64,000 nucleotides of DNA from a virus (IMGVR_UViG_3300028903_000004:32001-96000), one strand, 5' to 3'. Numbered from the stretch's first letter, positions 209 to 47,316 are shown. Program-made: numbers and translations. Notes: a model not told the origin generated them from the letters alone.

Positions 209-547
209 TTAAATAATATTAGATTTTAATGACGCTACCTCCTGAATCAATCCATTTAATACATCTTCCTTATACATGGAAAACATTTTAAACGCTTCTA
301 AAGCCTCTTTGTTTTCCAACTGAGATGGAATTATTAGCTGAACTATTTTAAGCTCATCTGATGTACGTAAAGGGGCAAATATCTTATCATATAAATGGGA
401 ATATAACGCCCAATATTTATTAGCTTTATCAGAATGTTCAAGAGACCATCGTTGATATTTGCTCTTTATTGGCATATTATTCATCCAATCTCTATACGAT
501 TGCTTGTTTAAATTCTCTCTTAATAACTTTTTAATTAATTCTCTCAT
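209..547 (-). CDS. hypothetical protein with MRELIKKLLRE N-terminal leader (putative head-packaged protein)
   Basis: ORF; ATATTTAT motif at 554-561 upstream; leader nearly identical to that of 46900..47316. Confidence 0.7.
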   Translation of the reverse strand: MRELIKKLLRENLNKQSYRDWMNNMPIKSKYQRWSLEHSDKANKYWALYSHLYDKIFAPLRTSDELKIVQLIIPSQLENKEALEAFKMFSMYKEDVLNGLIQEVASLKSNII

Positions 548-763
548 ATACCAATAAATATATTTAAAATTACTATAAATTTAAAAAAAAATATAATTTC
601 CCTTAATTAAGTTCATAATTTTTACTTATGTATAATTTTTAAAAATAAAAAACAGCTTAAAATTCTTTATTATTATGTATTTGTATGATTTTATCATACA
701 TATAAACTAGTTATAACCAATACTACATTATTTGTTCTAATTAGCATTTTGTTTCAAAAACTT

Positions 764-1300
764 TCAAAAATTTTCCATCCCTAAATTAATAATTTTAGCG
801 GATTTTCCATTATAATATGGCTCTGGTACAATATATTCAGTATCGTGTTTTCCATAAACTTGGTTTGTAATTACAATTAAATCTAAATCTTTCCATTCTT
901 CAACCAAATTTTCAGCATCTTCTTGTTCCATACCACCATATTCAACCAAATCCTCAATTATATATGAAGTATCACCCCGCAATAAAGCATCAAACGCTTC
1001 TTGTATTCCTAAACTATCAAATCTGCTTTTACTTAAATCAAAAAATGCTGGATTTTGTGAAATTATTTTCACCTTATACACATAATCTCCCCAAGATGTT
1101 TGTGGTATATTACTGAAAAACATACCATCAATTCTTGTTGATGAATTTGGTTTTAACTCAATCTTATCAAAGTCAAAGTTATCAATTTTTGAATTGGTTG
1201 AGTGGTATGCTATAAATTCTTTATTACTACTCACCTGTTCATTTAGAAACTCTCTAATAGTGGTAGTAATAATTTTTCGTAATTTCATATCTTTGTTCAT
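764..1300 (-). CDS. ADP-ribosyltransferase-fold (ART-PolyVal-like) protein with N-terminal leader
   Basis: AYHST..F..F, GMFFS, WG.YVYKVKI...NP and TEYIV motifs; late motif at 1316-1323. Confidence 0.55.
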   Translation of the reverse strand: MNKDMKLRKIITTTIREFLNEQVSSNKEFIAYHSTNSKIDNFDFDKIELKPNSSTRIDGMFFSNIPQTSWGDYVYKVKIISQNPAFFDLSKSRFDSLGIQEAFDALLRGDTSYIIEDLVEYGGMEQEDAENLVEEWKDLDLIVITNQVYGKHDTEYIVPEPYYNGKSAKIINLGMENF

Positions 1301-1343
1301 ATTTTTTATTTATATATAAATATTCAATTTTAAAATTACCAAC

Positions 1344-1691
1344 CTACATTTTTAAAAGTTTTTGTTCAATGAAGTAAATTTTATTTCCTTTTTTAAAACA
1401 TTGGTCAATATTTAAAATATCTCCGTTGACGTTAGTAAATCTTTTCGGAAGGATAGTACACCCTTTTATTTTTAAATATTCTTCAAATACATGTTCAAAT
1501 GCATCGCCAAAACGGATTTCATGGGATTGAAGGAGATTTTGAAGAATCTTAGCTTTTGGTTTAGTGGGCCTAAACAAACCAATATATCTGCTTGGAGAAT
1601 TTGAAATTTTCTCTAATAAATCTGCTTTTGATTTCTCAAAAATAGTTTCATTGAAAATCTGTTTAAACAGATTATAATTCATTATTGCCAT
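1344..1691 (-). pseudogene. C-terminally truncated type II restriction endonuclease (HpyAIV-like, GANTC)
   Basis: RYIGLFRPTKPKAKILQNLLQSHEIRFGDAFE and D...IEQK motifs; only 115 aa, stops 4 codons after ExK; overlaps the methyltransferase stop. Confidence 0.65.
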
Positions 1692-2862
1692 ATATTAAAA
1701 AACTTTCTTCTGGTTCATTAACTGCGCTATTTCTTTCAAATTCCAACTCATTATATTTGTCGGAACTTTTTAAATACTTATTTTCGTAGTCATGCCTTAA
1801 TTGGTCAATACTTATTAAAGTATTGTTTCTCTTTACATACCAAAATGTCCAACCATTATGATTTTCTTTCCTTAAAAAAGAAGCGCTTACTTTATGAATA
1901 GAGCCTACAATTCCATTACCTTCTAATGAAGAATCCGCTAAAACTTGTGCAGAGAATTTACCATCTTTAGAATACAAGTATTCACCGATTTTTACGAAAC
2001 CTTTTTCAATTAAATTTCCAAAAGGCACCTTTGGCTTTCTTTTTTCAATTTTATATTCAAGTAAAGGCTTTTCAATAGGTTTAATTTTTTCGACACGTTC
2101 AGTACCTATTTTCACGTAGAATTCTTCACGGTCAAAGGCAATGAATTTTCTACCGAGTCTTTTGGCAACCGCAGCAGTTGTTCCACTGCCAGAAAAAGGG
2201 TCTAAAACAATGTCGCCCGGATTAGAAGTTGAAATAATTATTCTGTATAGAAGTTCAGCAGGTTTTTGTGTAGAATGGGCTTTTTGTCCATTTACTTTTA
2301 TTCTTTCTTCACCTTGACAAATAGGTATTAACCAATCACTTCTCATTTGTAAATCATCATTCATCACTTTCATTGAGTGATAATGAAAGGTATAGTTAGA
2401 AGATTTTGATTTTGTTGCCCAAATTAATGTTTCGTGTGCATTGTTAAACCTTGTTCCTTTAAAGTTAGGCATTGGGTTAGTCTTTATCCAAATTATATCG
2501 TTAAGCATCCAAAAACCTATATTCTGCAGTATTGCACCAACTCTAAATATGTTGTGATAAGTTCCAATTACCCAAAAGCTACCTGAATTTTTTAAAACTC
2601 TGTGGCATTCCTTCATCCATAAGGTTGTGAATTTATCATACTCTTCCTTTGATTCAAATTTATCCCACGAATCGTTAACAGCATCAACTTTAGTTTGATT
2701 TGGTCTAAATAATTCGCCATTTAATTGCAGGTTATAAGGGGGGTCTGCAAAAATCAAGTCTATTGAATTGTCGGGTATTTTTTTTAAAAGTTCGATACAA
2801 TCGCCTTGGTGTATCTTATTAAGTTTTAATGTTCCTAATTTATCCATTTTATTTTCTGTCAT
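1672..2862 (-). CDS. N6-adenine DNA methyltransferase, beta class (CcrM/M.HinfI-like, GANTC) with C-terminal RAMA-like domain
   Basis: DPPYNLQL, NPMPNFKGTRFNNAHETLIW, HSTQKP, DPFSGSGTT; C-terminal GSIHKV...NGWTFW; start likely 2862 or 2847 rather than the TTG at 2928. Confidence 0.9.
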   Translation of the reverse strand: MTENKMDKLGTLKLNKIHQGDCIELLKKIPDNSIDLIFADPPYNLQLNGELFRPNQTKVDAVNDSWDKFESKEEYDKFTTLWMKECHRVLKNSGSFWVIGTYHNIFRVGAILQNIGFWMLNDIIWIKTNPMPNFKGTRFNNAHETLIWATKSKSSNYTFHYHSMKVMNDDLQMRSDWLIPICQGEERIKVNGQKAHSTQKPAELLYRIIISTSNPGDIVLDPFSGSGTTAAVAKRLGRKFIAFDREEFYVKIGTERVEKIKPIEKPLLEYKIEKRKPKVPFGNLIEKGFVKIGEYLYSKDGKFSAQVLADSSLEGNGIVGSIHKVSASFLRKENHNGWTFWYVKRNNTLISIDQLRHDYENKYLKSSDKYNELEFERNSAVNEPEESFLIYGNNEL

Positions 2863-3060
2863 ATTCTTTGCAAAGATAGTTTTATTATCTAAAGGCATGC
2901 GTTTGTTGTCTTTTAGCATTACCGCCAACGGTCGAGTAGCTCATCACGATAAAAATTCCAAATACTCTTTTCATAGTTTTTTTTTTAATTATTTTATTTA
3001 TTATTATTTTGTTCGCGATTTTATGTCTCGCGAATATGGACATTTTTATTATTTTAATAA

Positions 3061-3432
3061 TTATCTTTCAAAATTTAAAAAATTAATCATCAATTTTTTA
3101 ATAATTTCTTTTCCATTAGGACGTTTAAGTATTTTCTCTAATTCTATTAATTCTTCTTCTGATATATTAAATATTGAGTTATCCTCAAAATATGGTGTAT
3201 TATCTTCTTCTATATTTTTTTTTAATTCGACTAACATTTCTTCCAATTCATTTAAAACAAATATAAGTATTTTACTTAAATTAAGATTTTTTTCTGTTAA
3301 AAGATTTTCTCCGCATTTTGGGCATGATTTATTAAGAAAATCTTCTAAATTATTAAAATTAACTGAATCATTCATATAATCACAATTTGGATTATCACAT
3401 TTAATTGTTAATTGAATAATATTTTTTTCCAT
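3061..3432 (-). CDS. hypothetical protein with zinc-finger (CDNPNC...CPKC)
   Basis: ORF with two Cys pairs. Confidence 0.65.
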   Translation of the reverse strand: MEKNIIQLTIKCDNPNCDYMNDSVNFNNLEDFLNKSCPKCGENLLTEKNLNLSKILIFVLNELEEMLVELKKNIEEDNTPYFEDNSIFNISEEELIELEKILKRPNGKEIIKKLMINFLNFER

Positions 3433-3433
3433 A

Positions 3434-6312: not shown

Positions 6313-7462
6313 TTAAAATATGTTTTCTAAAAAAACATCATTAGAAGTTATTAAGGTATCATTTTCTTTTATCATACGATTAAATTCATTGATTTTATGT
6401 TCGACCTCAATTATTAATTTTTCAGGTGCTAGCTTATTATTGAATCCTCTAAATTGATTAAGTTTTATAATATATCTTGAAGTTTCATCGTCATATACTT
6501 TATTTAATTCAAGAGTATATTCATTAATGGAATATATTCCACTTAAATGTGAATTAACCCTATTAACATATGTTCCAACGCAATGTTTTCTTTTCATACC
6601 TTCATATACTAACTCTTTACTACTCTCTAAAAGTTTATAGCCACTAAATTCGGCAAATTTTTTATAAATAATGTGGTTATTTAATGGCATATTTAGTTCA
6701 GAATAAGTGATATCGGTAATAATTTTTGACATTTTGTCATGTTCTTTCTTTAATCTTTTAATGCTCCAAGATAAATTTATCTTATTATTCAAAGTTTTGG
6801 CCATTGATAACGAATCATATAGAATATTAGTATTATCTATTTCAAAAAAATCAAAATTAAATTTATGTATATTTGTTACATAATCAGTATATTCATTAGA
6901 AATTTTTTTGAAAGTGTGACGATAGGTTATATTTTCATGTATTTTTTTTGCTAATGGATATGTAACTTTATAGGTAAATTGAAGCATTTTTTTAAGAGAT
7001 GTTAATTTGTGTTTACTTATATAATTAAATGATTTGTTTAATAAAAGTTTATGTTTTACCATTATTTCTAATGGTGGAAAGATTTTTATTAAAAAATTAA
7101 TAACATTTTTATTGTTATCTTGCGAATATATATCATTTAATGTTAATGGTTTAATTTTGCCATTAGATTTACAGAAAAATTCATTACTAGTTTTATAAAT
7201 AGAAAATATTTTTTTTTTCTCTGTTATAAATAATGTTATTTTTATTTATACCCCATTTTTTAAAATACCAAGCAATTTCAAAATCACCATTAGTGCTAAA
7301 AAAAACAACAACTTTTTTTTTTATTAATTCAAATGGATTAATTGACCCGTTGTATAATATAACCCTAGCTTTATATTTATCTTTTCGATAAATATCTAGA
7401 AATTTATCTACATTTGGATTTTCTTTTTCAGCTAAAACAATGTAATGACTAAATTCTTTCAT
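6313..7462 (-). CDS. PcfJ-domain protein, split into 7193..7462 and 6313..7062 by a frameshift in an A10 run
   Basis: LVYEGMKRKHCVGTY PcfJ-like motif; removing one A at 7209-7218 gives a continuous 382-aa frame. Confidence 0.65.
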
Positions 7463-7932
7463 ATCTTTATTATTCTATAATTTAATTTTTCTTCGATACA
7501 AAGATATAAAAAAAAATTTAAAAAAGCAAATACAAAAAAGAAGAATAATTAAAAATATCAATTAACTTGATTTTTTAATTAATTTATCATATATTTGTTA
7601 ATACAAATAAGAGAATTACTAAATATAAAATTATGCGGATAATAAGTATCATAGGATTATGATTATTGCAAGCTGTATTACATGCAACATTTAAAACTTT
7701 AATTGAAATTATTTTGTATAAAAAATAGTTTTTATTGTGAATGATACAGGAAAATATATAATCTTATGCTATGACGTTATATATCTAGCATCATTTTCAT
7801 TTTAATTATTAAGATTAAATTAAATTTGGTATAGCTTTTTAAAAACTTCTTACGATATTTATCATTAAAATTTTTTATAATCACCAAAAACCAATAATAA
7901 TACTTAAATTATTTTATGATTCTAAATTTACT

Positions 7933-12165: not shown

Positions 12166-12313
12166 ATTTCTTTTTTATTAATAAATATCAAATATAATCT
12201 AAAATTAAATGTATATAAAATTCTATAAATAAATACTGCAATAATGTATAAATAACATGTATAACCAGTTTTTTTAAAAAATAATTAATATTTATTAATA
12301 AACATTTTATTAA

Positions 12314-12817
12314 ATGAGAAAAAGAATTAAAATATCTGAAAGTCAATTGAAATTGCTTCAATCAGTAACAGAAGAAACTCCAGATATGAAAAACTCTGTT
12401 AGTAAGGAAGAATTAACCGCTGAATATGATAAACTAGTTGAATATAAAAAAAATGTCTTTAATAAGATGGATAGGTATTATAATTTAATTACCAGTTATT
12501 CTATCAATGAAATCATTAAAAACAAAGAAGTCATAGCTAAATTAGATTTAATATATAAAGAAATAGAGAAAATCGAAGCAAATTCATATCAATTATCCAG
12601 TAAAATAGAAAATAAAACCGAAACTTTATCAGATGAAGAATTTGATAATTGGGGTAATAAACTTGAAATTAACGCTAACCGTATTAATAATGATATATGG
12701 TGGAAAAAAACAGCATTAGAGGATTTAATAAATATGATTAAAGACATGGTTGATGGGTATAATGAAAAAGAGATTGATAAATATTTTAAGGAAAATAATT
12801 TGGATATAAAAATATAA
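12314..12817 (+). CDS. late coiled-coil protein with MRKRIKISESQL leader
   Basis: ORF; ATATTTAT at 12288-12295. Confidence 0.7.
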   Translation: MRKRIKISESQLKLLQSVTEETPDMKNSVSKEELTAEYDKLVEYKKNVFNKMDRYYNLITSYSINEIIKNKEVIAKLDLIYKEIEKIEANSYQLSSKIENKTETLSDEEFDNWGNKLEINANRINNDIWWKKTALEDLINMIKDMVDGYNEKEIDKYFKENNLDIKI

Positions 12818-15931: not shown

Positions 15932-15977
15932 TTTTTTTTTTGCATCATTTATTTGATATTTATATCAAAATGGTTAT

Positions 15978-16310
15978 ATGAAAAAGAAGATAATGATAAC
16001 AGAAAAACAATTAAATATAATAATTGAAAATGAAACCATTCAAAACAGAATAGTTAAAACTATTGTTAATTATCTTAGAAATTATTATGAACCGATTATT
16101 GCCATTTTTCCTGATAAAAATGACTATACAACTGGTGGATTAATACATAATAATATTGATGGAACCACTCTTTCTCCTAAAGCATTAAAGGAACGTTTAA
16201 AATACAAATTTGGGGATTTAAGTGATGAATTTTTAGAACAAATCATTTCAGATTGGTTTAACGATAAAATCACTGATGATTATTTATTATCAAAACCAGT
16301 TTCAATGTAA
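15978..16310 (+). CDS. late hypothetical protein with MKKKIMITEKQL leader
   Basis: ATATTTAT at 15956-15963. Confidence 0.7.
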   Translation: MKKKIMITEKQLNIIIENETIQNRIVKTIVNYLRNYYEPIIAIFPDKNDYTTGGLIHNNIDGTTLSPKALKERLKYKFGDLSDEFLEQIISDWFNDKITDDYLLSKPVSM

Positions 16311-19953: not shown

Positions 19954-20172
19954 ATGGAAAAAAAAGAAACTAAACAACAATCTAAGGTTGTAAGAATCAA
20001 TGAAAGTGCTTTGGTAGATATAATTGAAAACATCGTAACTGAAGCTATTGCTGAAAAGAAAAAAGAATGGATTGCTGAACAAGCAAAAAAACAGGATGCA
20101 CTTATTGCTGAAAGAGTAGATAAAATATTAGCAGAAAAGCTTAAAAGTTTACTCGGAAGCAATAACAAGTAA
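19954..20172 (+). CDS. small late coiled-coil protein (VVRINESALVDIIENIVTE)
   Basis: ATATTTAT at 19900-19907. Confidence 0.7.
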   Translation: MEKKETKQQSKVVRINESALVDIIENIVTEAIAEKKKEWIAEQAKKQDALIAERVDKILAEKLKSLLGSNNK

Positions 20173-27656: not shown

Positions 27657-27694
27657 ATTTATCGTCTGAATATTTATATTAAAAGTAATTTAGT

Positions 27695-28471
27695 ATGGCA
27701 TCATTAAAAAACATCATAATTGAAGAGCTTAGAGGTGTTTCCGAAATAGTAAAACCAGAAGAAGTAGATTTAAGTTCTTTTGTAATGCGAAATACATTAA
27801 ACTCGAAAATATGGAAATCTGAAGATAAAATTGACCCTAAAATTAGAAAACAATTATTGAAAATTGCTGATGATTTTGTTGAATTTTTAGATATTCCATG
27901 GGTTGAAGTTATAGATGTAACGTTAACTGGAAGTTTAGCAAATTATAATTGGTCAGAATACTCAGATATTGATTTACATATTATTTTTAATTTTCAGGAC
28001 ATTAATGAAAATGAAGAACTGGTTAAAGATTTTTTAGATTCAAAAAGAAAAATATGGAATGATACTCATAATATAACAATTTACGGTTTTGAGGTTGAAA
28101 TTTATGCTCAAGATATAAATGAACCGCATACATCTACTGGTGTTTATTCGCTAGAATATAATAAATGGGTTATAAAACCAAATAAATTGAAGCCAAGATT
28201 TGATAAAATTTTAATCAAGAAAAAAGCATCTGAATTAATGACCAAAATTGATGATATTATTGAAATGTATCATGAAGGTAAGTATGAAAGAGTTGTGAAT
28301 GAATCTGAAAAATTATGGGAAAAAATAAAAAAAATGCGTAAAGCGGGTCTTGAAAAAGAAGGTGAATTTTCATATGAAAATATTGTTTTTAAAGTATTAA
28401 GAAGAAGTGGTTATATTAATAAATTTATGAAAATTAAAGACCAAGCTTATGATATTTTAAATTCTATATGA
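27695..28471 (+). CDS. Pol-beta superfamily nucleotidyltransferase with N-terminal leader
   Basis: TGSLANYNWSEYSDIDLH (GS..DxD), VEIYAQD; late motif 27670-27677. Confidence 0.8.
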   Translation: MASLKNIIIEELRGVSEIVKPEEVDLSSFVMRNTLNSKIWKSEDKIDPKIRKQLLKIADDFVEFLDIPWVEVIDVTLTGSLANYNWSEYSDIDLHIIFNFQDINENEELVKDFLDSKRKIWNDTHNITIYGFEVEIYAQDINEPHTSTGVYSLEYNKWVIKPNKLKPRFDKILIKKKASELMTKIDDIIEMYHEGKYERVVNESEKLWEKIKKMRKAGLEKEGEFSYENIVFKVLRRSGYINKFMKIKDQAYDILNSI

Positions 28472-35301: not shown

Positions 35302-37371
35302 ATGGCTCAAAAACTAACAATATTTCAAGGATTAACAAGATTATTTGGACCTGATGGTTATGATAAAAATAGACCACTGGATAGTAGTAATAAATATAAT
35401 ATTGGGAATGAGATTTTACTTAAAACCAAAGATAAAGCAGAATATGAAACAGCTAAATTACAAGCTCAGCAGGCAAAATATTTAGGGCAATTATGGCGTA
35501 AGGTTGATGGAGAAATGTTTCAACAATCAATTCATTATGAAGTTACGAGAATTGGTTCGTATGCGGATTTTGAATCTATGGAATTTTATCCTGAAATCGG
35601 AGCTGCATTGGATATTTTTATGGAAGAATCTACGACCGTAAATAATAAAGGTAAAATTCTTAACATTTATTCTGAAAGTAAACGTGTAAAACGTGTGTTA
35701 GAAGATTTATTTTTTAATAGATTAGATATTCACACAAATTTACCGATGTGGGCTCGTAATTTATGTAAATATGGCGATAATTTTGTTTACTTAAATACTG
35801 ATGATAAAAACGGTATTATTGGTTGTAGACAGATGCCTAATTTTGAGATGGAGAGGAGAGAAGGTGATATTTTAAATTCAATGAACGCAAGTAGAGATGT
35901 CTTAACTAATGATAATCAAAGTAATTATAATAGAGTTAAATTTCATTGGAAAACTAAAAATATAGTATTTAACTCATGGCAAATAGCTCATTTTAGATTA
36001 TTAGGTGATGATAGAAAGCTTCCGTATGGTACTTCGTTATTAGAGAAAGCTAGGAGAATTTGGAAACAATTATTGCTTTCTGAAGATGCTATGTTGATAT
36101 ATCGCGTAACTAGAGCACCTGAGCGTAGAATTTATAAAGTTTTTGTTGGTAATATTGATGATAAGGATGTTGAACCTTATATAAATGAGATTGCTAATCG
36201 TTTTAAACGTAAACCAGTTATAGACCCACAAACAGGACAGATGGATTTACGTTATAATCAATTAGCACAAGACCAAGACTTATTTATTCCAGTTCGTGAT
36301 GAAAACGCTGCAACCCCAATTGATACCTTACCAGGTGCAAGTAATCTTTCTGAGATTGCTGATATTCAATATTTGCAAAGGAAATTATTTACTGCTTTAC
36401 GTGTTCCTAAAGCATTTTTAAATTATGAAGATGCTTATGGAGACGGTAAAAATTTAGCTTTACAGGATATTAGATTTTCCAGAACCATTAATCGTATTCA
36501 ACAGGCATTAATTATGGAATTAAATAAAATTGCTATTATTCATTTATATATTCTAGGATTTACAGATGAATTAGATAATTTTATCATTACATTAAATAAT
36601 CCATCTACTCAAGCTGAAATGCTTAAAATTGAATATTTGCAATCTAAAATTACATTATATAATGAAGCTGTAAGAGATTCTGGTAATGGTTTTGCTGCTA
36701 TGTCAATGACAAGAGCTAAACGTGATATTCTTGGATGGTCTGATGAAGAAATTAAACAAGATTTACTTGAACAAAGAATGGAAAGAGCAGCTGCAGCTGA
36801 GCTTGAAAAAACCGCTAAGATTATTAAGCATACGGGTATTTTTGATAAAGTTGATAAAATTTATGGTGACCCTAACTATGACCCATATACTGATACTGAA
36901 GAAGGTGATATTGGTAGTACTAGTAAAAAAAGTGGGGGTAGTGGATTTGGTGGTGGATTTGGTGGCGGATTAGGTGGCGGATTAGGTTCTGAAATAGGCG
37001 GAGCTGGTGAAAAAGAACTAGAATTCGGCGGTGAGGAAGGTGAAGAAGCTGCTGGTGATGAAGAACCTGAAGCTGGATTAGATTTAGGTTCTGAAGAAGC
37101 AGTTTCACCTGAAGAAGCAACACCGACTAAAGAAACTATTAAAAGAGCGGGAAAAATATTAACTGAAAAAAAACACATTTTAAGTAAAAAATTAGAATAT
37201 CGTCAAAAAAAATATCAAGAAAATTTTCTTGATAAATTAACAGGTTCATTAAATAAAGAAGACCATTTAAAGGATGAAATTACTAAGATTTATGATAAAA
37301 GTATAAAAATTAATGAAGGTATTAATAATATTATTGGTGATATTGATGAATTACTTAAAGGAAGTGATTAA
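35302..37371 (+). CDS. portal protein (T4 gp20-like)
   Basis: EDAMLIYRVTRAPERRIYKVFVGN, IDTLPG, LFTALRVP. Confidence 0.95.
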   Translation: MAQKLTIFQGLTRLFGPDGYDKNRPLDSSNKYNIGNEILLKTKDKAEYETAKLQAQQAKYLGQLWRKVDGEMFQQSIHYEVTRIGSYADFESMEFYPEIGAALDIFMEESTTVNNKGKILNIYSESKRVKRVLEDLFFNRLDIHTNLPMWARNLCKYGDNFVYLNTDDKNGIIGCRQMPNFEMERREGDILNSMNASRDVLTNDNQSNYNRVKFHWKTKNIVFNSWQIAHFRLLGDDRKLPYGTSLLEKARRIWKQLLLSEDAMLIYRVTRAPERRIYKVFVGNIDDKDVEPYINEIANRFKRKPVIDPQTGQMDLRYNQLAQDQDLFIPVRDENAATPIDTLPGASNLSEIADIQYLQRKLFTALRVPKAFLNYEDAYGDGKNLALQDIRFSRTINRIQQALIMELNKIAIIHLYILGFTDELDNFIITLNNPSTQAEMLKIEYLQSKITLYNEAVRDSGNGFAAMSMTRAKRDILGWSDEEIKQDLLEQRMERAAAAELEKTAKIIKHTGIFDKVDKIYGDPNYDPYTDTEEGDIGSTSKKSGGSGFGGGFGGGLGGGLGSEIGGAGEKELEFGGEEGEEAAGDEEPEAGLDLGSEEAVSPEEATPTKETIKRAGKILTEKKHILSKKLEYRQKKYQENFLDKLTGSLNKEDHLKDEITKIYDKSIKINEGINNIIGDIDELLKGSD

Positions 37372-37412
37372 CTTTCTATAGAAATATTATATTTATTAGA
37401 AAAGATTTAGTT

Positions 37413-38186
37413 ATGCAAAATTTCGGTAAAATAAAAAATGCTTTCAATGAAGTTCTAATTGAAGGAATTTTAAAAAAGTCTGATAAAAATAAAAAAATTT
37501 TTCAGTCTTATATTAAGGCATTAAAAGAAGATAAAATTTTAAAGACTCAATATTTAGTTTATAAAAATTTAGAATCTAAAGTTGAGCCAGATTTAAATAT
37601 GGCGATAGATTATGTAAATGAAAACATTTCCTTACTAAAAAGTTTTTCTCCGAAACAAATTATTGAAGCTAATAAAAAATTAGTTAAGCTATTAGGTGAA
37701 TTTAAAAAAATGTTAGATGAAAAATATGATGAAAAATTAGAAAAACTTCATGAAAATATTTCATATTTAGTTACACATAAAAATACTAACATTAATGCTA
37801 CATTTAATCGTAAAAAACAAATTGCAGAATATATTATCATACCAAAATCAAAAGAACCGATTTCTGAAAACATAGTACCTACTAAAGTCTTATGTGATAT
37901 AGCTATTAGAAGATTTAATGAAAAATATTCTGACCTAACTGAAAATGAAAAATCTTTAGTTAAGGTTATTATTGAATCGGATAGTGAAAATCAAACAATT
38001 TTTTTTAAGAATATTAAAAATACGTGTATTAAATTAATTGACGAAAATCTTAAAAATGCAGATATAGAAACTAAAGAAAAATTGTTAACTGTTAAAGATA
38101 AATTATTAAATTTGGAATTTAACCAAGAAACATTTTCGGAAAGTGCTATAAAATTAATAAATTTAGCTAATGATTTGAGTGAATAG
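37413..38186 (+). CDS. head-region hypothetical protein
   Basis: late motif 37389-37396; between portal and protease. Confidence 0.7.
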   Translation: MQNFGKIKNAFNEVLIEGILKKSDKNKKIFQSYIKALKEDKILKTQYLVYKNLESKVEPDLNMAIDYVNENISLLKSFSPKQIIEANKKLVKLLGEFKKMLDEKYDEKLEKLHENISYLVTHKNTNINATFNRKKQIAEYIIIPKSKEPISENIVPTKVLCDIAIRRFNEKYSDLTENEKSLVKVIIESDSENQTIFFKNIKNTCIKLIDENLKNADIETKEKLLTVKDKLLNLEFNQETFSESAIKLINLANDLSE

Positions 38187-39153: not shown

Positions 39154-40899
39154 ATGTATAGTGATGAGTTAAAAATATTAAAACCAGGTCAAACTGGGTT
39201 TGGAATTATGATTGAACAAGACGCAGGTTATATTTCTCCTAATGATATTAGGAATAAACCATTCTTAAATGAAATGCAAAAATTGGGTGAAGGTAAGGGT
39301 ATAATGATTGAACCGTTAATAGTTTATGCAGTTCTACAAAAATATGGTGTTGAAAATAGAAATGGGCGTATTTATCCAGAAGCTATTCTTAAGAGAGAAG
39401 TAGAAAAATATCAGCAATTAATTCGTGAAAAACGTGCAATAGGTGAATGCGTTCCAATTGGAACCGAAATATTTACTAAAAATGGCTGGAAACGAATTGA
39501 AGAAACAATTATTGGAGAAGAAATATTAACATTGAATATTAATTCAGACCAATTAGAATTTCAAAAAATTACTAATACTACTAAAAAAATGTATAATGAT
39601 GATATGATTCATATATACAATAATAGTAGTTTTGATATAATGGTTACTAAAAAACATAAAATTGTTTTATGGGATAGAAATAATAAACCATATATTTTAA
39701 CAGGTGAAGAGTTATATAATAAATTAATAAATAATGATTCAAAAATTAGTCATTCATATATTAAACATTCCGCCAATTGGATTGGAAAGGAACCTGAGTA
39801 TTTTAACATTCCCAACTCAGATATAAAAATTAAAACAGAACATTGGGCTGCATTTTTAGGAATATTTTTGAGCGAAGGACATTGTAGCGGAAGTAAAGGT
39901 GGTAAAAAAAAGAATTTAGTTTGTATTACGCAAAAAAAAGAAGAAACAAAAGAAAAAATTATTAATCTTCTTAATAAACTTCCTTTTAAATATTCTATAT
40001 CTGGTAATAGGCAATTTAATATTTATGATGATAAACTATATGAATATTTATTTGAGTTAGGAAATTCTCACGAAAAGCACATTCCAAGTTACGCTAAAGA
40101 ATGGTCTAAAAATTTATTAAATATTTTACTTGATTGGTTATTAATTGGGGATGGTAAAAATAGGAAAAATAGGAAAAATAGTTTGTTAAAAGAATATTTC
40201 ACAACATCAAATAAATTAGCTGAAGATGTTTTTGAGATAATGTTAAAATTGGGGAATGGTGCTACGATGAATGTTATTTCTCCTGTTGACCGAGAAATTG
40301 AAGGGCGAATTATTTTAGGTGAAAATAGTAAACCATTACATTTAATTCATGAAAGAACATCTAAAGGAATTTATATGGATACTAGATATATAAAAACAGA
40401 ATTAGTACCTTTTAATGAAAATGTGTATTGTGTAACTGTACCAAATGGTACCTGGTTAATGCGATATAATGGGAAAATATCTTGGACACATAATAGTGAC
40501 CATCCAGAAACTTCAATTATATCTAACGATAGAATTTCACACAATATTTTAGAAACATGGTGGGAAGGTAAAACATTGTTAGGTAAATTAGAAATTATAA
40601 TGTCTCCAGGTTTCATCAATCAAGGAATTATTTCTTGTCAAGGTGACCAAATTGCAAATCTTCTTAGAAAAGGAATCATGGTAGGTGTTTCATCTAGAGG
40701 TGTTGGTTCATTAGAAGAAGTTGCAGGTAAACATATCGTACAAGATGATTTTGAATTAATTTGTTGGGATATTGTTACAAGTCCAAGTACACCAGGTTCA
40801 TGGATTTTTAATAAAAAAGAAGATATGAGGGGATTTTCTGAAAGCAAAATAAATAAAAAGCCTATTTTAATTGATAAATTAAATAAATTTTTATCATGA
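39154..40899 (+). CDS. prohead protease (T4 gp21-like) containing an intein
   Basis: NRNGRIYP, AIGE|intein|SDHP, SH, GVSSRGVGS, DIVTSPST. Confidence 0.93.
   Translation: MYSDELKILKPGQTGFGIMIEQDAGYISPNDIRNKPFLNEMQKLGEGKGIMIEPLIVYAVLQKYGVENRNGRIYPEAILKREVEKYQQLIREKRAIGECVPIGTEIFTKNGWKRIEETIIGEEILTLNINSDQLEFQKITNTTKKMYNDDMIHIYNNSSFDIMVTKKHKIVLWDRNNKPYILTGEELYNKLINNDSKISHSYIKHSANWIGKEPEYFNIPNSDIKIKTEHWAAFLGIFLSEGHCSGSKGGKKKNLVCITQKKEETKEKIINLLNKLPFKYSISGNRQFNIYDDKLYEYLFELGNSHEKHIPSYAKEWSKNLLNILLDWLLIGDGKNRKNRKNSLLKEYFTTSNKLAEDVFEIMLKLGNGATMNVISPVDREIEGRIILGENSKPLHLIHERTSKGIYMDTRYIKTELVPFNENVYCVTVPNGTWLMRYNGKISWTHNSDHPETSIISNDRISHNILETWWEGKTLLGKLEIIMSPGFINQGIISCQGDQIANLLRKGIMVGVSSRGVGSLEEVAGKHIVQDDFELICWDIVTSPSTPGSWIFNKKEDMRGFSESKINKKPILIDKLNKFLS
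39448..40494 (+). mobile_element. intein with LAGLIDADG homing endonuclease (349 aa)
   Basis: starts CVPIGTEIFT, block B VT..H, FLGIFLSEG and LDWLLIGDG, ends VYCVTV...WTHN with Ser at +1. Confidence 0.92.
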
Positions 40900-41054: not shown

Positions 41055-42434
41055 ATGGCAGATAAAGAAAAAAAATCAATCGTGGAAGAAGCTTTACTTG
41101 ATATTAATGTGATTCAAGAAGCTTTAAAGAAAAACACAAAAGAAATACTTCGTTCTACAATGAAGGAAGAAATTGAAGAACTTATAAAAGAACATGTAAT
41201 AAACGAACAGGGTTACGAAGAAGAAGACATTACGTCTAATGATGCTGATGATAATGACACTGAAAAAATTGAAACTGGAGAACTAGACAGTGAAGAAGAA
41301 ATTGAAAAAGACAATCCTGCTACACTTCCAGTAAGTGATGATGAAGAAGAAACAGAAGCAGAAATGGATTATGATGAGTTAGATTTAACAGCAGCATCAG
41401 ATGAAGAAGTAATTAAAGTTTTCAAAAAACTTTCAGCTGACGATGAAATCGAGGTAGTATCAGACAAAGAAGTTAACGTCAAAGACCCAGATAGCGGTAA
41501 TGAATATATCGTTAAGGTTAATGATGGCAAAGTAAGAAGAGAAGACGATACTCTTGATGAACCAGAAATGGATACTGAAGATGATTTAGAAATTGAAATT
41601 GAAGATGAACCAGAAATGGATGATGAAGATGAACCAGAAACTGATATCGAAGATGAAAGCGTAGAACCTGTTTATGAAATTACATTGGATGAAGACATCG
41701 TAAGAGGTCAAGGCCATGATACAGAAGCTAAAGAAACCACTACTCCTAATAAAGGTAAAATTGATGGTCAAAAAGCTCCTGTTGATTCCAAAACATCTGG
41801 TGATAATTTAAAAGGTGGATTTGATGAAGATAATCCAAATGACGGAAAAGATGGCCACGCTGAACATGTAATGGAAAGCGAAGAAGATGAAAATTCAGAA
41901 GATGAAGAAATTGAAGAAAATAAATCTCGTGCATTAGCTGATTTACATGCGAATCGTATTAGACCTGAAGGAAAGAAAGAGTATCATACCGCTCCTATCG
42001 GTAGAGCTGATGAATCTGTTTCCAAACAAAAGTTTAACGAACTGTTAAATGTAGCTAAAAAACTTCAAACTGAAAACAAGGAAATCAAAAATGCCCTTAG
42101 TCAGTTTAAGAAAATGTTAGCTGAATCAGTAGTTTACAATACTAACTTAACTTATATGGTTAAAATAATCACTGAACATTCAACCTCTAAGGAAGAAAAG
42201 AAGATGATTATGCAACGATTTGATGAAGTAAAAACATTAAAAGAATCAAAAGCACTTTACAAAACCATAATTAGTGAGTTAGCTAATAAAAAATCGATTA
42301 CTGAATCCATAGAAAATAAAATTGAAAAATCAAAAACAAGCGGTGCAAGTAATCAGTTGACTGAAACAACAGCATATGTTGATGAATCAACAAAAAGAAT
42401 AAAAGACTTAATAAAAAGAGTCGAAAATAGATAA
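41055..42434 (+). CDS. prohead core/scaffold protein
   Basis: very acidic, coiled-coil C-terminus, directly upstream of MCP; late motif 41012-41019. Confidence 0.8.
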   Translation: MADKEKKSIVEEALLDINVIQEALKKNTKEILRSTMKEEIEELIKEHVINEQGYEEEDITSNDADDNDTEKIETGELDSEEEIEKDNPATLPVSDDEEETEAEMDYDELDLTAASDEEVIKVFKKLSADDEIEVVSDKEVNVKDPDSGNEYIVKVNDGKVRREDDTLDEPEMDTEDDLEIEIEDEPEMDDEDEPETDIEDESVEPVYEITLDEDIVRGQGHDTEAKETTTPNKGKIDGQKAPVDSKTSGDNLKGGFDEDNPNDGKDGHAEHVMESEEDENSEDEEIEENKSRALADLHANRIRPEGKKEYHTAPIGRADESVSKQKFNELLNVAKKLQTENKEIKNALSQFKKMLAESVVYNTNLTYMVKIITEHSTSKEEKKMIMQRFDEVKTLKESKALYKTIISELANKKSITESIENKIEKSKTSGASNQLTETTAYVDESTKRIKDLIKRVENR

Positions 42435-42448: not shown

Positions 42449-44233
42449 ATGTCACACTTATTAACATCAGGACAAGTTGGTAATATTGGTATTAATCACC
42501 TTAAAGCTATTCGTCAACAAACCCAAGAAAGATGGGAAGCTTTAGGATTTCTTGACGGACTTAAAGGTCATATAAAAGAAAACATTGCTATGCTATATGA
42601 AAATCAAGCTAAAGCATTGTTAACTGAAACTACAGACGCTGGTTCTAGCGGTTCATTTGAAACTGTAGTATTCCCTATCGTTCGTAGAGTTTTCTCAAAA
42701 CTTTTAGCAAACGATATTGTATCAGTACAAGCATTGAACATGCCAATTGGTAAATTGTTCTATTTTGTACCTCAAACTTCTAATAGAATTGATAAAGCTA
42801 CTGGACAAGCAGGAGACCCATGGCAAGATAACCCTCGTTACTCTGCTCATACAAGTATGGCTACAGACCATCTTCCATCATGTATCGGTACTACTGGCTG
42901 TACAGCAACAACTTTCAAAACTAGAAATCTTTATGATTTATATTACAATGATGGTTTATTCGATAATTCAAAAGGTGAAATTACTATTGTTTACACTAGC
43001 GGTAACGAAGTAATCCCAGGTCGTATTCTTCCTAATGGTAATTTCTCTGCAACTACTACATTTGTAGCAGCTACTGATGGAACCGTTAGAAATGTTATTT
43101 TACAAATTTCAGGTTTCTCAGAAGTAAATAAAGGTAGATTGACTGGTCCAGATGGAAATGAAATGGATACTGAAGCATTCTTAGCATCACTAAAAATTGT
43201 TAATAATTCAGGTTCTAATATTTCTGACCCAGATGGAAAAGTTATAATTGCTGCTAATGCTGAAATTCCTTTCAGATTAGTTACTCAAAAATATGGTAAA
43301 GGCATCGTTCAATATGGTGATATTTGTGATGCTGGTGGCAATCTTTATGTTGAACTTGACCTTACACACCCAGCCATTTCGTCAAGAGAAACTTACGATG
43401 GTTATATTGGTTGTTCAGGGTTCACTGCAAATAGTATGACATTCCAAGCTTCTTGGGCTCGTTATGCATCTCTTGAACTTGAAACTGAACTTGGTGAAGT
43501 TTCTTTCAAACTTGATGAAGTTGTTGTTTCTGTTGAAGAAAGAAAATTACGTGCAACTTGGTCACCAGAATTAGCACAAGACGTTGCTGCATTCCATAAC
43601 ATTGATGCTGAAGCTGAACTTACAGCTATGTTATCAGAACAAATAGCATCTGAAATTGACCGTGAAATTCTTCGTGACCTTCGTAAAGCAGCTGCATGTC
43701 AATTCCGTTGGGATTATGCTGGTTGGAGAAAAGCAAGTAATGCTGCTAATCCTTATACTCAAAAAGAATGGAACCAAACTCTTATTACAAGAATTAACCA
43801 AATCTCAGCTCAAATTCATAAATCAACGCTTCGTGGCGGTGCTAACTTTATTGTAGTAAGTTCTGAAATCAGTGCAATATTCGATGACCTTGAATACTTC
43901 CACGCATCAGATGCTTCACCAGAACAAGACCAATATAATATGGGTATTGAAAGAATCGGTTCATTAAGTGGACGTTATCAAGTATATCGTGACCCTTATG
44001 CACCTCCATACTCTATGATTATTGGACATAAAGGTAAATCATTACTTGACACTGGTTATATCTACGCACCATATGTACCTCTACAATTAACTCCAACAAT
44101 GTACAATCCGTTTAACTTTGCTCCAGTTAAAGGTATTATGACTCGTTATGCTAAAAAAGTCGTAAACAACCGCTTCTATGGACATATTAGAGTTGACGGA
44201 ATCCCAACATTTAATATTAACGAATTACGTTAG
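42449..44233 (+). CDS. major capsid protein (T4 gp23-like)
   Basis: FPIVRRVF..L.ANDIVSVQ, RKLRATWSPELAQD..AFH.IDAEAEL, YAPYVPL, GIMTRY. Confidence 0.96.
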   Translation: MSHLLTSGQVGNIGINHLKAIRQQTQERWEALGFLDGLKGHIKENIAMLYENQAKALLTETTDAGSSGSFETVVFPIVRRVFSKLLANDIVSVQALNMPIGKLFYFVPQTSNRIDKATGQAGDPWQDNPRYSAHTSMATDHLPSCIGTTGCTATTFKTRNLYDLYYNDGLFDNSKGEITIVYTSGNEVIPGRILPNGNFSATTTFVAATDGTVRNVILQISGFSEVNKGRLTGPDGNEMDTEAFLASLKIVNNSGSNISDPDGKVIIAANAEIPFRLVTQKYGKGIVQYGDICDAGGNLYVELDLTHPAISSRETYDGYIGCSGFTANSMTFQASWARYASLELETELGEVSFKLDEVVVSVEERKLRATWSPELAQDVAAFHNIDAEAELTAMLSEQIASEIDREILRDLRKAAACQFRWDYAGWRKASNAANPYTQKEWNQTLITRINQISAQIHKSTLRGGANFIVVSSEISAIFDDLEYFHASDASPEQDQYNMGIERIGSLSGRYQVYRDPYAPPYSMIIGHKGKSLLDTGYIYAPYVPLQLTPTMYNPFNFAPVKGIMTRYAKKVVNNRFYGHIRVDGIPTFNINELR

Positions 44234-44255
44234 TATTAATTCTAAATATATTATA

Positions 44256-44282: not shown

Positions 44283-44305
44283 ATTTTAAATGAATATTTA
44301 TAAGT

Positions 44306-45067
44306 ATGAAACAGTTTATTAAACAAAAATTATACGAAAGATTGGTTACTGAAAAATTAACCGATATTGATGATGATGTTGATTTAATTTATAACATGTA
44401 TTTTAAAAACGACATCGAAGAAATTCAAAATACTGGAGTTGCAAGAACAACTATGTTTAAGTCTGATAAAACAAATACCAGTATTTTAAAATCTAAAGAA
44501 TGTGTTGAAGCAGATTCTAAAAATAGATGTGAAATATTAATTAATCATGGAATAAATTATTATAATCCTTTTAAAAAAATAATTAGTATTTCGATTAATA
44601 AAAATGCTTTAAATGTTATTTTCAATAATAATGGTAATTTAATAGATGCAATTAATTATCTTCCAGATGAACAAAAAAAAATGTTTAAAACTGAGTTTAC
44701 TGAAGAAAAAATTAAAGGTAGCATTCATCATGAATTAACACATTGGATTGACGACACAATGCATAATGAACATATTAAAAATAAAATTTCAAAAGCTAAT
44801 GAATTTGGAAATTATAATCCAGATTCAGATTCAATGATTACTTCAAAAATCGAAATACAAGGACAGATACATAACATTAAACAATTATATAATAAATATA
44901 AAGATATTTGGGATAAACTAACATTCAAAGAAATGATTGAACTATCATCATCATTAACTAGTATTTACAATAAGTTAGATTACGATATGAAAAAACAATG
45001 GTTACGAGACATTAAAATTAGAATGGACCGAGAAGGATTATTAGGGAAAAATATGGCAAATACATAA
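44306..45067 (+). CDS. HExxH zinc-metallopeptidase-like protein with N-terminal leader
   Basis: IHHELTHWID...E; late motif 44294-44301. Confidence 0.65.
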   Translation: MKQFIKQKLYERLVTEKLTDIDDDVDLIYNMYFKNDIEEIQNTGVARTTMFKSDKTNTSILKSKECVEADSKNRCEILINHGINYYNPFKKIISISINKNALNVIFNNNGNLIDAINYLPDEQKKMFKTEFTEEKIKGSIHHELTHWIDDTMHNEHIKNKISKANEFGNYNPDSDSMITSKIEIQGQIHNIKQLYNKYKDIWDKLTFKEMIELSSSLTSIYNKLDYDMKKQWLRDIKIRMDREGLLGKNMANT

Positions 45068-45211: not shown

Positions 45212-45805
45212 TTATTTATTTTTTTTATTTAAATTATCAAACAAATTTGAATGATTTTTTTGTTTGAAGATATTATACGGTGTAAATTTACCATCCTCAG
45301 AATAATTTTCCCAAAAAGATGAGATAAGTGAACTACACATAGTTACACCAATACAATTTTCATCTTCCTTTAGTTTTTTAAGTGTATCTGAAAATTCTCG
45401 TAAACCGCTGAAATCATATTCCTCAAAAAACTTTTTTAATAATTTTGAAGTCATATGTTTAATAAAATTTTCATAGGCTAAAATTACTTTACTAAAATCT
45501 TCTTTCATAATAATAACCCTATCGAAAGTTGAGGCGAAAACTATTCGATGGTCAAATAATACTTCTTCATTATGAATCATATCCCAAAACGGCTTCATAT
45601 CACCAGTTATTTGTAAGTCAGAAAAATTCATAGGATAGTCATCCGACATCCATTCTGGACGTTCAATCTCATTTATGAATAAATCATTATATAACTCATA
45701 TATTATACTCCAAATAATCACATACATTCTATTAATGTCATCAATTTCAGAGAATTTAATTACATACCCATCTTTATTGATTCTATAGATTATTGTCTTA
45801 CTCAT
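45212..45805 (-). CDS. hypothetical protein (early promoter)
   Basis: TAnnTTTG at 45827-45834. Confidence 0.7.
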   Translation of the reverse strand: MSKTIIYRINKDGYVIKFSEIDDINRMYVIIWSIIYELYNDLFINEIERPEWMSDDYPMNFSDLQITGDMKPFWDMIHNEEVLFDHRIVFASTFDRVIIMKEDFSKVILAYENFIKHMTSKLLKKFFEEYDFSGLREFSDTLKKLKEDENCIGVTMCSSLISSFWENYSEDGKFTPYNIFKQKNHSNLFDNLNKKNK

Positions 45806-45881
45806 TTTAAAAAAATAATTTATTTACAAATATAATTAAAAAAAAGGGAAAAAACAAATTTTTCCCTTTTTATTTTTTTTT

Positions 45882-46855
45882 TTGTATGATTAACATTTTT
45901 TTGATTAATTAGGCTCTATTACCACAGTTAGAACAGTATTTATCTTTTTTGTGTAACTTGGAGCCACAAGCAGTACAATACCTTTTAATTTGAATATCAT
46001 TAACGGTATTAATTTTCTGCGAAATAGGGAGAAGTTTTGCTGAAACTGTCCAGAATGGTAATATCCCCCAATTCTTATGAACAGTTTTCATTTCTTGGGC
46101 AGAATATGACCCTTCTTCTACACGACCTGTTTCAATCTTTCTTTTAATTATTTTACTATAAGATGTTTTGTTCGTTGAAATGTCATTGTTGTAAAATCCT
46201 AAATTTGATGATGTTGATAGTATGGAATTATAAGCTGTGTTTGGTGAATTTATTGTAGTTGATATATTACTACACTCTCCATCAGTAGTAGATATAATAA
46301 TTGGATGACCATCATAATTAAAAGGATTAGTATCTAACGTAGTCACAAACCAAATATTTGCTGAATAACTTAGATTTGGAATAATAACTTGTTCACGATA
46401 AAATTCAACTTTTAAGTCGCCATTATCTTCAATAGCTTTACGAACTTCATCAGTATTAGATACCTCATAAGTTTCAAATTTAAATTTTTTTGGAACATCC
46501 AAATAACGGTCAAGAAATACACGTTCACCTGGTCTAAGTACTAAACCACCTTGTGAAATTTTATTACCATTTAAACTAATAACAGCTAATATATTGCTAT
46601 TAGTTGGATTAAATAATTCTAATTGAAATTCTTGTCCTTTTTGGAGATAATAAGTTGGGGTTGAATTTTTCCCATAACATTTAATCCTACTTTTATTGAT
46701 TGCGATGTTGGCAGTAGGCATACCATTTGAATTAGTTAAGTTCATTTTAATTAACTTTTAATAAATTGTTATTATTAACATGCTAATCTTTTTGTGACCG
46801 CAATCACTTAAAGCCCAAATTTGACTCAAGACTAACACTAATGTTAATCATACAA
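45882..46855. repeat. 16-bp perfect inverted repeat (45882-45897 and 46840-46855) flanking one gene
   Basis: TTGTATGATTAACATT ... AATGTTAATCATACAA. Confidence 0.85.
45909..46745 (-). CDS. hypothetical protein with C-terminal zinc ribbon
   Basis: YCTACG...KYCSNCG; beta-rich N-terminus. Confidence 0.8.
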   Translation of the reverse strand: MNLTNSNGMPTANIAINKSRIKCYGKNSTPTYYLQKGQEFQLELFNPTNSNILAVISLNGNKISQGGLVLRPGERVFLDRYLDVPKKFKFETYEVSNTDEVRKAIEDNGDLKVEFYREQVIIPNLSYSANIWFVTTLDTNPFNYDGHPIIISTTDGECSNISTTINSPNTAYNSILSTSSNLGFYNNDISTNKTSYSKIIKRKIETGRVEEGSYSAQEMKTVHKNWGILPFWTVSAKLLPISQKINTVNDIQIKRYCTACGSKLHKKDKYCSNCGNRA

Positions 46856-46899
46856 TAATAAATATAATAAATTATAAAAAAATGTAAATAAAAACTTTA

Positions 46900-47316
46900 T
46901 TAGTTATTAATTTTAATTGGTTCTATTGAAATAACTTTAGTACCTTTACCTTTATTTTTTAAAGTAATTTCTTTTTCCATTGGGTATTCGATATTATTTT
47001 TTAATGTTTTTTTTATATCAATTAATTTTTTATCTGCTTTAACTGTTAAAATAACATAATATTTTCCTTTTCGAAAATTTCTAGTTTTTATTAAATTATT
47101 TTTATCCATTGAATAATGTGAACCTGGTTCAATTTTATTAATATTTTTTATATCATCTGGAGAATCAAGTTCTAATATACAATAAAGTGTTATAATATTT
47201 GGTAATGAATTATAATCAAATGATGGTCCTTCATTAAAATCAATTAAATTAAAGTCATCATATTCATCGAAATTATTATAATATTCTCGCAATATTTTTT
47301 TAATTAATTCCTTCAT
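46900..47316 (-). CDS. protein with MKELIKKILRE leader, possible degenerate ADP-ribosyltransferase fold
   Basis: ITLYC..., GSHYS, EKEITL (R-S-ExE-like with R replaced by C). Confidence 0.5.
   Translation of the reverse strand: MKELIKKILREYYNNFDEYDDFNLIDFNEGPSFDYNSLPNIITLYCILELDSPDDIKNINKIEPGSHYSMDKNNLIKTRNFRKGKYYVILTVKADKKLIDIKKTLKNNIEYPMEKEITLKNKGKGTKVISIEPIKINN

Follow-up and report, generated by a model that had tools for sequence, protein, structure and literature searches.

We describe short N-terminal leader peptides shared by otherwise unrelated proteins of an uncultured virus, which were found in a stretch of 64,000 nucleotides (the window) that covers positions 32001-96000 of a virus record of 123,436 bp (IMGVR_UViG_3300028903_000004; G+C 27.6%). 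The leaders fall into three classes, A1, A2 and B, and are probably capsid-targeting propeptides of the kind known from phage T4, to be cut by a homologue of the T4 prohead protease gp21. The T4 enzyme cleaves behind L/I-x-E, and to load foreign proteins into the head, the 10 N-terminal residues of internal protein (IP) III are enough (PMC9026906). The T4 capsid-targeting sequence (CTS) reads MKTYQEFIAE (PMC8442874), and propeptides of 7-65 residues are removed from the N-termini of T4 virion proteins, the packaged proteins including the ADP-ribosyltransferase (ART) Alt (PMC9026906). The CTS was already proposed to let T4-like phages load various proteins (PMC9026906, PMC3012670). The principle is T4's own and has been in print for decades; new here are the three leaders, the large and mostly enzymatic set of tagged proteins in a jumbo clade of Bacteroidota type, the identity between leader ends and the capsid maturation site, and a possible coupling to mobile cassettes. 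The record is a fragment of a jumbo T4-like phage, as judged from the CheckV estimate of about 36% of a genome and from the size of its relatives, 296-363 kb for those with capsid proteins 56-77% identical and up to 372 kb for other leader-bearing relatives.

The consensus sequences of the leaders are M(KD/E)LRKFIATTIREYLNE, ending in YLNE, for A1; MKxLIKKLLRE, ending in LLRE, for A2; and MxKIxI(T/S)ExQL…(I/V)xE for B. When the N-terminal 25-mers of 155 proteins were compared all-versus-all, 10 pairs scored 40 or higher, nine of them leader pairs, while internal segments, C-terminal segments and each of five shuffles gave 0-1 such pair. By BLASTP, similarity among the tagged proteins stopped about 20 residues in. 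Hidden Markov models (HMMs) were built solely from leaders of other phages and run against this genome, with 749 of its internal segments as control. The A1 model detected five N-termini at 19-53 bits (best internal score 6.3), the A2 model three at 11.6-22 bits (5.5), and the B model three at 13.9-17.9 bits (9.5). Altogether 11 proteins were recovered genome-wide, seven of them inside the window. The A1 members are 764-1300 and four genes just left of the window, and the A2 members are 209-547, 44306-45067 and 46900-47316. A twelfth leader gene, encoding a GNAT protein at genome 27060, carries a divergent A1 variant.

The N-termini quoted in a sequence-only reading of the window were all found in the sequence, at the coordinates given there. 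That reading placed most of them in a single class A; the leaders are real, but they form two classes, A1 and A2. The nucleotidyltransferase at 27695, whose MASLKNIIIEE had been counted as a class A leader, was rejected as a member, as it scored at most 3.4 bits with the leader HMMs, matches no class, and has only hydrophobic-x-E sites. By pair score alone (35, versus 3-7 such pairs in shuffles), class B is not separable from chance; it was accepted because relatives gave an independent model, and the proposal of such a class is upheld on this basis.

The position of the leaders was examined in 3657 open reading frames (ORFs) from 148 related loci. Full-length A1 matches were located at the extreme N-terminus in 39 of 39 cases, the A2 pattern was found 15 times at N-termini and never internally, and a B-type regular expression was 11-fold enriched at N-termini. 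A degenerate DNA pattern for IREYLNEN returned 55 loci from IMG/VR. In 27 of these the peptide lies 10-11 residues after Met, together with the rest of the leader and with AATTTTAA…ATATTTATATATAAA upstream; in the other 28 it is internal to unrelated proteins and lacks the rest of the leader. The strict form of the DNA pattern detected only 1-3 A1 genes per genome. When a profile of the first 32 residues of A1 proteins was compared with 1.84 billion representative proteins, 400 clusters were obtained at E <= 0.001, and about 145 of the best 150 matches begin at residues 1-12. The A1 leader is near-invariant across 18 residues. Within the leader, the majority frequencies at codon positions 1, 2 and 3 are 0.88, 0.92 and 0.70 (0.53, 0.57 and 0.49 just downstream); the third position is thus freer than the first two, indicating that the peptide itself is under selection.

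Leaders were exchanged between orthologues. Among orthologues of the 764 ART (cargo 49-90% identical), some carry A1, whereas P0042 and P0044 have MSKEIRQMIDKVKNFKQFVNE instead; a leader of this MSKE(M/I)RQMIDKVKNFKQFVNE type stands on the GNAT protein at genome 27060. More distant orthologues have leaders of 9-12 residues such as MITKYKDFLLE, and the 46900 family switches between A2 and MKLLNILNE. Through these changes the Glu was kept, being near-invariant in the 46900 family and present in most of the 33 members of the 764 family (alignment by eye). The nucleotidyltransferase of 27695 is, in related IMG/VR contigs, the last module of proteins of 1248 (L118:140-3886) and 529 amino acids (L120:960-2549), where FTLNE and IISE precede it. 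Within these long proteins, FTLNE, HILNE and IISE form the joints between the modules (zincin-like HExxH, Zn ribbon, ART-like), and one joint inside a long protein consists of a complete class-B-like leader followed by the YHFTS start of an ART.

The leader ends are best understood from the head genes of the same window (Table 1). Their order, as read from sequence matches and gene position, is the T4 order 17…20-67-68-21-22-23. Three small genes (257, 122 and 144 amino acids) occupy the gp67/68 position between portal and protease. No sequence homology to gp67/68 or gp22 was detected for these or for the very acidic 459-residue protein in the gp22 position. In the 257-residue protein, L-x-E followed by S/G/A is kept at residues 15-17 (36 distinct orthologues: L15 83%; E17 83%, D 14%), and the motif ATATTTAT precedes its gene at 37389-37396. 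The 459-residue scaffold candidate, with 79 orthologues in related loci, is rich in (L/I)-x-E sites, including HVINE at 47-51. Two peptides to which the sequence-only reading had pointed are also present, ELIKEHVINE in this protein and ALLTE in the capsid protein (residues 56-60). Residues 69-106 of the capsid protein align with residues 25-62 of mature T4 gp23, and the conserved L-(L/I)-(N/T)-E stands just before the region matching mature gp23. The presumed propeptide cleavage site is LLTE, residues 57-60 (nucleotides 42617-42628). Among 71 distinct orthologues, L57 is kept in 96%, residue 58 is L or I, residue 59 is N in 58% and T in 28%, and E60 is found in 100%, followed by A, S or T. At the sequence level, then, the leader ends share their motif with the conserved maturation site of the capsid protein. 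A T4-type capsid tag is preferred because of this common motif, together with the presence of Peptidase_S77 and the T4 head-gene order.

The protease gene gave further matches to phrog_207 (9e-33) and the T4 gp21 structure 5jbl (1.9e-10), besides an intein hit. The intein, which includes a LAGLIDADG homing endonuclease, extends from Cys99 to Asn447 (nucleotides 39448-40494, about residues 99-447) and is followed by Ser. It is inserted inside a conserved stretch, with AIGE before Cys…His-Asn and SDHPE after it; this stretch presumably holds the catalytic His. The Ser motif GVSSRGVGS aligns with T4 gp21. Near its N-terminus the protease carries LIE at 19-21 and F-(I/L)-N-E at 37-40 (39 orthologues: E21 100%, E40 97%), and T4 gp21 has LIE-9 (PMC9026906). 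In a 325-kb relative (G002) the protease match is likewise split, within a 615-residue frame. Peptidase_S77 is encoded by all four leader-bearing relatives that are 79-100% complete. Contig L015 (39% GC), with one A1 gene, is silent on head type, its only neighbours being genes for an HNH endonuclease and an endolysin.

The window contains 52 copies of the motif ATATTTAT, where 33.8 would be expected, and none of 100 shuffles reached 52. Genome-wide, about 31 copies end 4-35 nucleotides (mostly 12-18) before the ATG of a same-strand gene, and the genes so preceded include those for the terminase, the protease, the scaffold candidate, the 257- and 144-residue head proteins, and tail proteins. 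A copy lies within 62 nucleotides upstream of 11 of the 12 leader genes compared with 22 of 148 others (Fisher p = 6e-8), so that the claimed association of leaders with this motif is borne out. For 19954-20172 the copy at 19900-19907 ends 46 nucleotides before the ATG, and 46900-47316, the lone leader gene lacking one, is second behind 47319-48728 (motif at 48744-48751). No early-type promoter was found on any of the 12 leader genes. The computational predictions of the T4-style reading that could be tested, namely the protease, head-gene order, capsid site, N-terminal position of the leaders on late-motif genes, unrelated cargo and differing leader types among orthologues of one cargo, all turned out as expected.

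We infer binding to the core, cleavage, presence in the virion, injection and the roles of the enzymes as follows. A tagged gene would be transcribed from a late-type promoter (ATATTTAT, ending mostly 12-18 nucleotides before the ATG). Its product would be built into the head by binding of the amphipathic N-terminal helix of 10-21 residues to the prohead scaffolding core. The gp21-type protease, active once the intein had been spliced out, would cut after the Glu of hydrophobic-x-E, that is, after YLNE (before N), LLRE or (I/V)xE, by the same rule that would remove the capsid propeptide at L-L/I-N-E before A. Enzymes and small basic proteins released in this way would stay inside the head, pass into the host along with the DNA and there probably serve takeover or counter-defence.

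Several observations weigh against such a role. The A1 leader has 18 residues and does not align with MKTYQEFIAE, and hydrophobic-x-E is a weak motif, frequent in these Glu/Lys-rich proteins. The 209-547 protein reads LNK where A1 reads LNE, so that only its LRE could serve. No protease was found in four of five fragmentary contigs, and that leader and protease occur together is a trait of the lineage and gives no proof of a functional link. The label 'late' is derived solely from the presence of the motif upstream of structural genes. The A1 genes share an upstream element, GGTGGAAATTTTAA-N5-6-AATATTTATATATAAAAGAAAA (e.g., window 1324-1345, minus strand; L002:5638-5677), and as GGTGGAAATTTTAA is not on structural late genes, they may form a separate expression class or carry a regulator site. 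An inverted repeat of at least 14 nucleotides was found in the flanks of 5 of 24 A1 genes versus 5 of 274 control genes, and repeat-flanked cassettes could explain part of the DNA conservation. Finally, the cultured phages are only distantly related, the closest by capsid protein (Flavobacterium phage immuto) reaching 40% identity, and tblastn of the 764-1300 ART protein against cultured phages gave no match.

The near-invariance of A1 over 18 residues exceeds what a cleavage motif needs and therefore implies a specific binding partner. The leaders might accordingly be docking or regulatory helices for another purpose, directed to a host target, a phage partner, oligomerization or a modifying enzyme, on proteins that stay unpackaged and work inside the infected cell; the extended promoter element peculiar to the A1 genes fits this idea. 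However, such a partner is at hand in the scaffold core, which would account for the conservation. Besides, the leader ends match the motif of the capsid maturation site, the short leader variants agree by eye with the T4 CTS in length and pattern, the expression signal is common to head and tail genes, and no constant neighbour gene was found beside the tagged genes in this genome. We consider such a docking role unlikely, and keep to the T4-type capsid-targeting propeptide.

Part of the A1 genes stand in a cassette-like context. Genes 23693 (weak GNAT-like match) and 29425 (ART) have 107 nucleotides of 5' flank and 68 nucleotides of 3' flank in common. These flanks, which enclose different cargo, are inverted copies of each other, with the exact 17-mer AAAACAAAAAGAATTTT on both sides of 23693. 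In L020, L039 and L050, A1 genes are bracketed either by this inverted repeat or by a 16-mer nearly identical to it; two of them carry other cargo and one is a 23693 orthologue. For at least some genes the mobile unit thus seems to be the whole cassette, composed of flank, promoter, leader, cargo and flank. The portable promoter-plus-leader module of the sequence-only reading stands insofar as the same leader is found on unrelated cargo, but some genes appear to move as whole cassettes and not by addition of a leader to captured genes. Folded as single strands, the cassette flanks form no hairpins by themselves (z -0.65 to +0.6 versus shuffles). The inverted flanks, recurring in other phages, are reminiscent of an integron-like cassette system; unlike such a system, the fragment has no recombinase, as no match to the tyrosine recombinase family PF00589 was obtained in the 123-kb record (about 36% of the genome).

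These flanks would also suit a leader that is a mere by-product of mobile-cassette DNA, in which the 5' part (flank, promoter and first 54 nucleotides) is kept for recombination and the peptide is functionless. Such an origin is quite improbable: third codon positions vary while residues are kept, most A1 genes lack such flanks, the A2 and B leaders are on fixed genes beside the capsid gene, and the Glu is retained despite changes of leader type and length. Moreover, mobility and a working tag are mutually compatible. It is possible, if rather doubtful, that virion loading is coupled to gene exchange, so that mobile single-gene cassettes with a late promoter and an A1 capsid address would make any cargo late, packed, trimmed and injected. 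The result would be a horizontally traded arsenal of ready-made effectors (ART, GNAT and dozens of unknown folds).

The cargo is diverse. Twenty-six distinct A1 proteins formed 23 BLASTP groups, and 65 database representatives of at least 100 amino acids formed 43, the largest (ART-like) with 16 members. Pfam matches among the 65 were ART-PolyVal (12; best 4e-23), DUF3990 (4), PARP (2), Tpt1-like (1) and GNAT (5), and most representatives were without a match. Besides the ART-fold and GNAT proteins, more than 35 groups of cargo stayed unassigned. In the AlphaFold2 (AF2) model of the 764-1300 protein (predicted local distance difference test, pLDDT, 86), the leader is a helix of low confidence at residues 3-23, with residues 19-23 below 50, and the domain starts from residue 27. 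Structural comparison by VIA-align gave Z of 6.9 for ParT, 6.4 for MbcT and about 6 (6.1-6.3) for tankyrase/PARP, all listed neighbours being ARTs. The top match in Foldseek was 6kyf, an anti-CRISPR, which we take to be the ADP-ribosyltransferase AcrIF11. Among 33 orthologues of the 764 family, Y32 H33 S34 … STR … E155 are invariant. Its promoter consists of ATATTTATATATAAA at 1316-1323 preceded by AATTTTAA.

The 46900-47316 model (pLDDT 82) has a helix at residues 2-13 and a disordered stretch at 12-30. In an unbiased VIA-align search of 48,161 chains the top 50 were mostly ARTs, including TreX (6.6), EcPltA (5.8), TreTu, Scabin, LT, PT and DT. In the family alignment R46 is kept in at least 90%, and GSHYS and E114-x-E116 are invariant. 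Both models show the leader as a helix of low confidence that stands apart from the domain; the Glu lies in a low-confidence linker in the 764 model, and at the helix end before the disordered stretch in the 46900 model. From these models both proteins likely have the ART fold, short of proof because Z values of 6.9 and 6.6 are middling (below 8). The label ART-like given earlier to both holds on these models and alignments, as does that of nucleotidyltransferase for 27695 on PF01909. The copy of 46900-47316 in the window has Cys in place of the near-invariant Arg46 (LYCI versus LYRI), and as judged from this replacement the enzyme may be inactive or altered in activity.

That the tagged proteins are one diverged ART-like paralogous family with the leader as its first helix was rejected as very improbable, for although the largest cargo group is ART-like (16/65), many cargos begin with a YHG(T/S) motif and weak full-length similarities link 18263 and 29425, GNAT acetyltransferases clearly bear the same leader, 43 BLAST groups are found among the 65 proteins, the AF2 helix is detached from the fold, orthologues of one ART swap leader types, and two ART classes (H-Y-E-like 764 and R-S-ExE 46900) bear different leaders.

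For the other cargo of the window, family assignment is limited. No Pfam or PHROG match was obtained for the 209-547 protein, and no Pfam match for the 12314-12817 protein. The 44306-45067 protein had been called an HExxH peptidase; the motif is present, but no Pfam or PHROG peptidase family matched, and sub-threshold Atlas leads were LPD23 (0.86) and SprT-like (0.83). Its orthologues begin with MKPLIKKLLRENLLNE and MKQLIKRILREGLLTE. The predicted mature part of the 19954-20172 protein (42 amino acids) is basic (isoelectric point 9.5), and in relatives class B leaders are on poly-Lys proteins of 79-104 amino acids near the capsid gene. The 27695-28471 nucleotidyltransferase has the GS…DxD motif, and ATATTTAT is located at 27670-27677.

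Table 1. Leader genes, head genes and repeats, with positions in the window unless another locus is named (aa, amino acids)
Feature	Position	Strand	Evidence and remarks
112-aa protein, A2 leader MRELIKKLLRE	209..547	-	A2 HMM 22.2 bits; ATATTTAT at 554-561
178-aa protein, A1 leader (…MKLRKIITTTIREFLNE, Glu21) and likely ART-fold domain (residues 27-178)	764..1300	-	A1 HMM 39.9 bits
167-aa protein, class B leader MRKRIKISESQLKLLQSVTE	12314..12817	+	B HMM 15.2 bits; ATATTTAT at 12288-12295
110-aa protein, class B leader MKKKIMITEKQLNIIIE	15978..16310	+	B HMM 13.9 bits; ATATTTAT at 15956-15963
72-aa protein, B-like leader after 11-residue extension (…KVVRINESALVDIIENIVTE)	19954..20172	+	B HMM 17.9 bits
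258-aa Pol-beta-type nucleotidyltransferase, N-terminus MASLKNIIIEELRGVSE	27695..28471	+	PF01909 24.8 bits (cut-off 21); phrog_36119 1e-52
T4-type large terminase	33222-35000		
gp20-type portal	35302..37371	+	PF07230 2e-77; phrog_213
257-aa candidate prohead-core protein	37413..38186	+	Position only; no family match
gp21-type prohead serine protease (Peptidase_S77) with intein	39154..40899	+	PF03420 8e-19, two pieces; PF14528; PF14890
Very acidic 459-aa protein, scaffold candidate (gp22 position)	41055..42434	+	Position; no family match
gp23-type major capsid protein, 594 aa	42449..44233	+	PF07068 5e-71
253-aa protein, A2 leader MKQFIKQKLYERLVTE, HExxH motif HHELTHW	44306..45067	+	A2 HMM 11.6 bits; ATATTTAT at 44294-44301
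138-aa protein, A2 leader MKELIKKILRE and likely R-S-ExE-type ART-fold domain	46900..47316	-	A2 HMM 22.2 bits
Shared-flank gene pair	L002:5545-6300, L002:11284-12040 (genome 23545-24300, 29284-30040)		Left of window
GTAGTATTGGT-type repeat	~690-760; L002:9558-9630, 3308-3346, 12046-12084		

The system resembles that of T4 IPI, IPII, IPIII and Alt in its gp21-family protease, head-gene order, hydrophobic-x-E leader on unrelated proteins and late-type promoters, and also in the likely R-S-ExE ART fold (as in Alt) and the small basic proteins (as the IPs). By eye, the short variants MITKYKDFLLE and MKLLNILNE share the CTS length and its aromatic/hydrophobic-x-E pattern. Unlike T4, there are three classes here, mostly of 11-21 residues against 10, and none aligns by eye with MKTYQEFIAE. 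The cargo set is far larger and consists mostly of enzymes: the fragment contributes about 12, and public data contain at least 400 A1 clusters. Cassettes with flanking repeats enclose some of the genes, Bacteroidota is the probable host phylum, and the system is known here from sequence alone. The phiKZ-like phages (phiKZ, 201phi2-1, SPN3US) are likewise jumbo phages with many head-internal proteins cut C-terminal to Glu by a gp21-related protease (PMC9026906, PMC5694885). Their propeptides, however, are long and heterogeneous and do not form one portable leader, the cut follows S/A-x-E in contrast to L/I/V-x-E here, and the capsid and portal in the present phage are T4-type. The polyvalent proteins (Iyer, Burroughs, Anand, de Souza, Aravind 2017, PMC5512222) have ART-PolyVal, GNAT-type and zincin-like modules in common with the cargo and are proposed to enter with DNA, and relatives of this phage string modules into proteins of 529 and 1248 residues. 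Unlike the polyvalent proteins, most modules here stand as genes of their own, with an individual promoter and leader, and the proposed delivery is via the head core and protease.

Should the tags function as they do in T4, a simple sequence rule would be available for listing the injected arsenal of a large and abundant clade of uncultured jumbo phages. Such a list would hold at least 400 A1-tagged clusters, most without assigned function. Anti-CRISPR enzymes include the ADP-ribosylating AcrIF11 and the acetylating AcrVA5. With these and Alt as precedents, the tagged set is a rich hunting ground for counter-defence enzymes of the first minute. The CTS principle, so far shown only in T-even phages of enterobacteria, would be extended to a distant branch with different leaders, and the leaders could act as packaging tags for engineering Bacteroidota phages. 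The coupling to cassettes, if true, would explain the turnover of the arsenal.

The host is probably a member of Bacteroidota, since Bacteroidota-style promoters (…TATCTTTGTATCGTTAA…) precede genes at the record's left end. After immuto, the next cultured capsid-protein matches are Microcystis Mel-JY01 and Rhodothermus RM378, and megablast with 20 kb of query sequence found nothing among cultured phages. The capsid protein has 594 residues against 521 in T4. Its residues ~110-330 form, by sequence comparison, a lineage-specific insertion domain, because they are without a counterpart in the T4 gp23 matches and yet are kept across the clade (more than 590 IMG/VR contigs).

Other genes and repeats were noted around the leader genes. 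A gene of the window with the late motif (11497-12165, minus strand) encodes a protein of 222 amino acids that starts with MRRFDKIKHIEAANKRLEE… and continues with YINENLLTEA, in which the leader-end and capsid-site motifs are combined; from these motifs it is possibly a further head-core or cargo protein, outside all leader classes. The A1 region is an anti-restriction-type island (window 1672-2919; L002:4001-5281 and 6995-7873; L001:4945-5730). Left of the window, tagged genes lie scattered through it. Its genes encode two N6/N4 methylases, one of them with a RAMA domain, a Mom-like protein, a LAGLIDADG endonuclease, a metallophosphoesterase, and a C5 cytosine methylase matched over its first half only. 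Downstream of several leader genes, on either strand, lies a repeat of the form GTAGTATTGGT…AACTAGTTTATAT…ATGATAAAATCAT… with a small palindrome. Just upstream of the first A1 gene, a 65-nucleotide unit is present in two tandem copies that are 88% identical (L002:61-190; genome 18061-18190).

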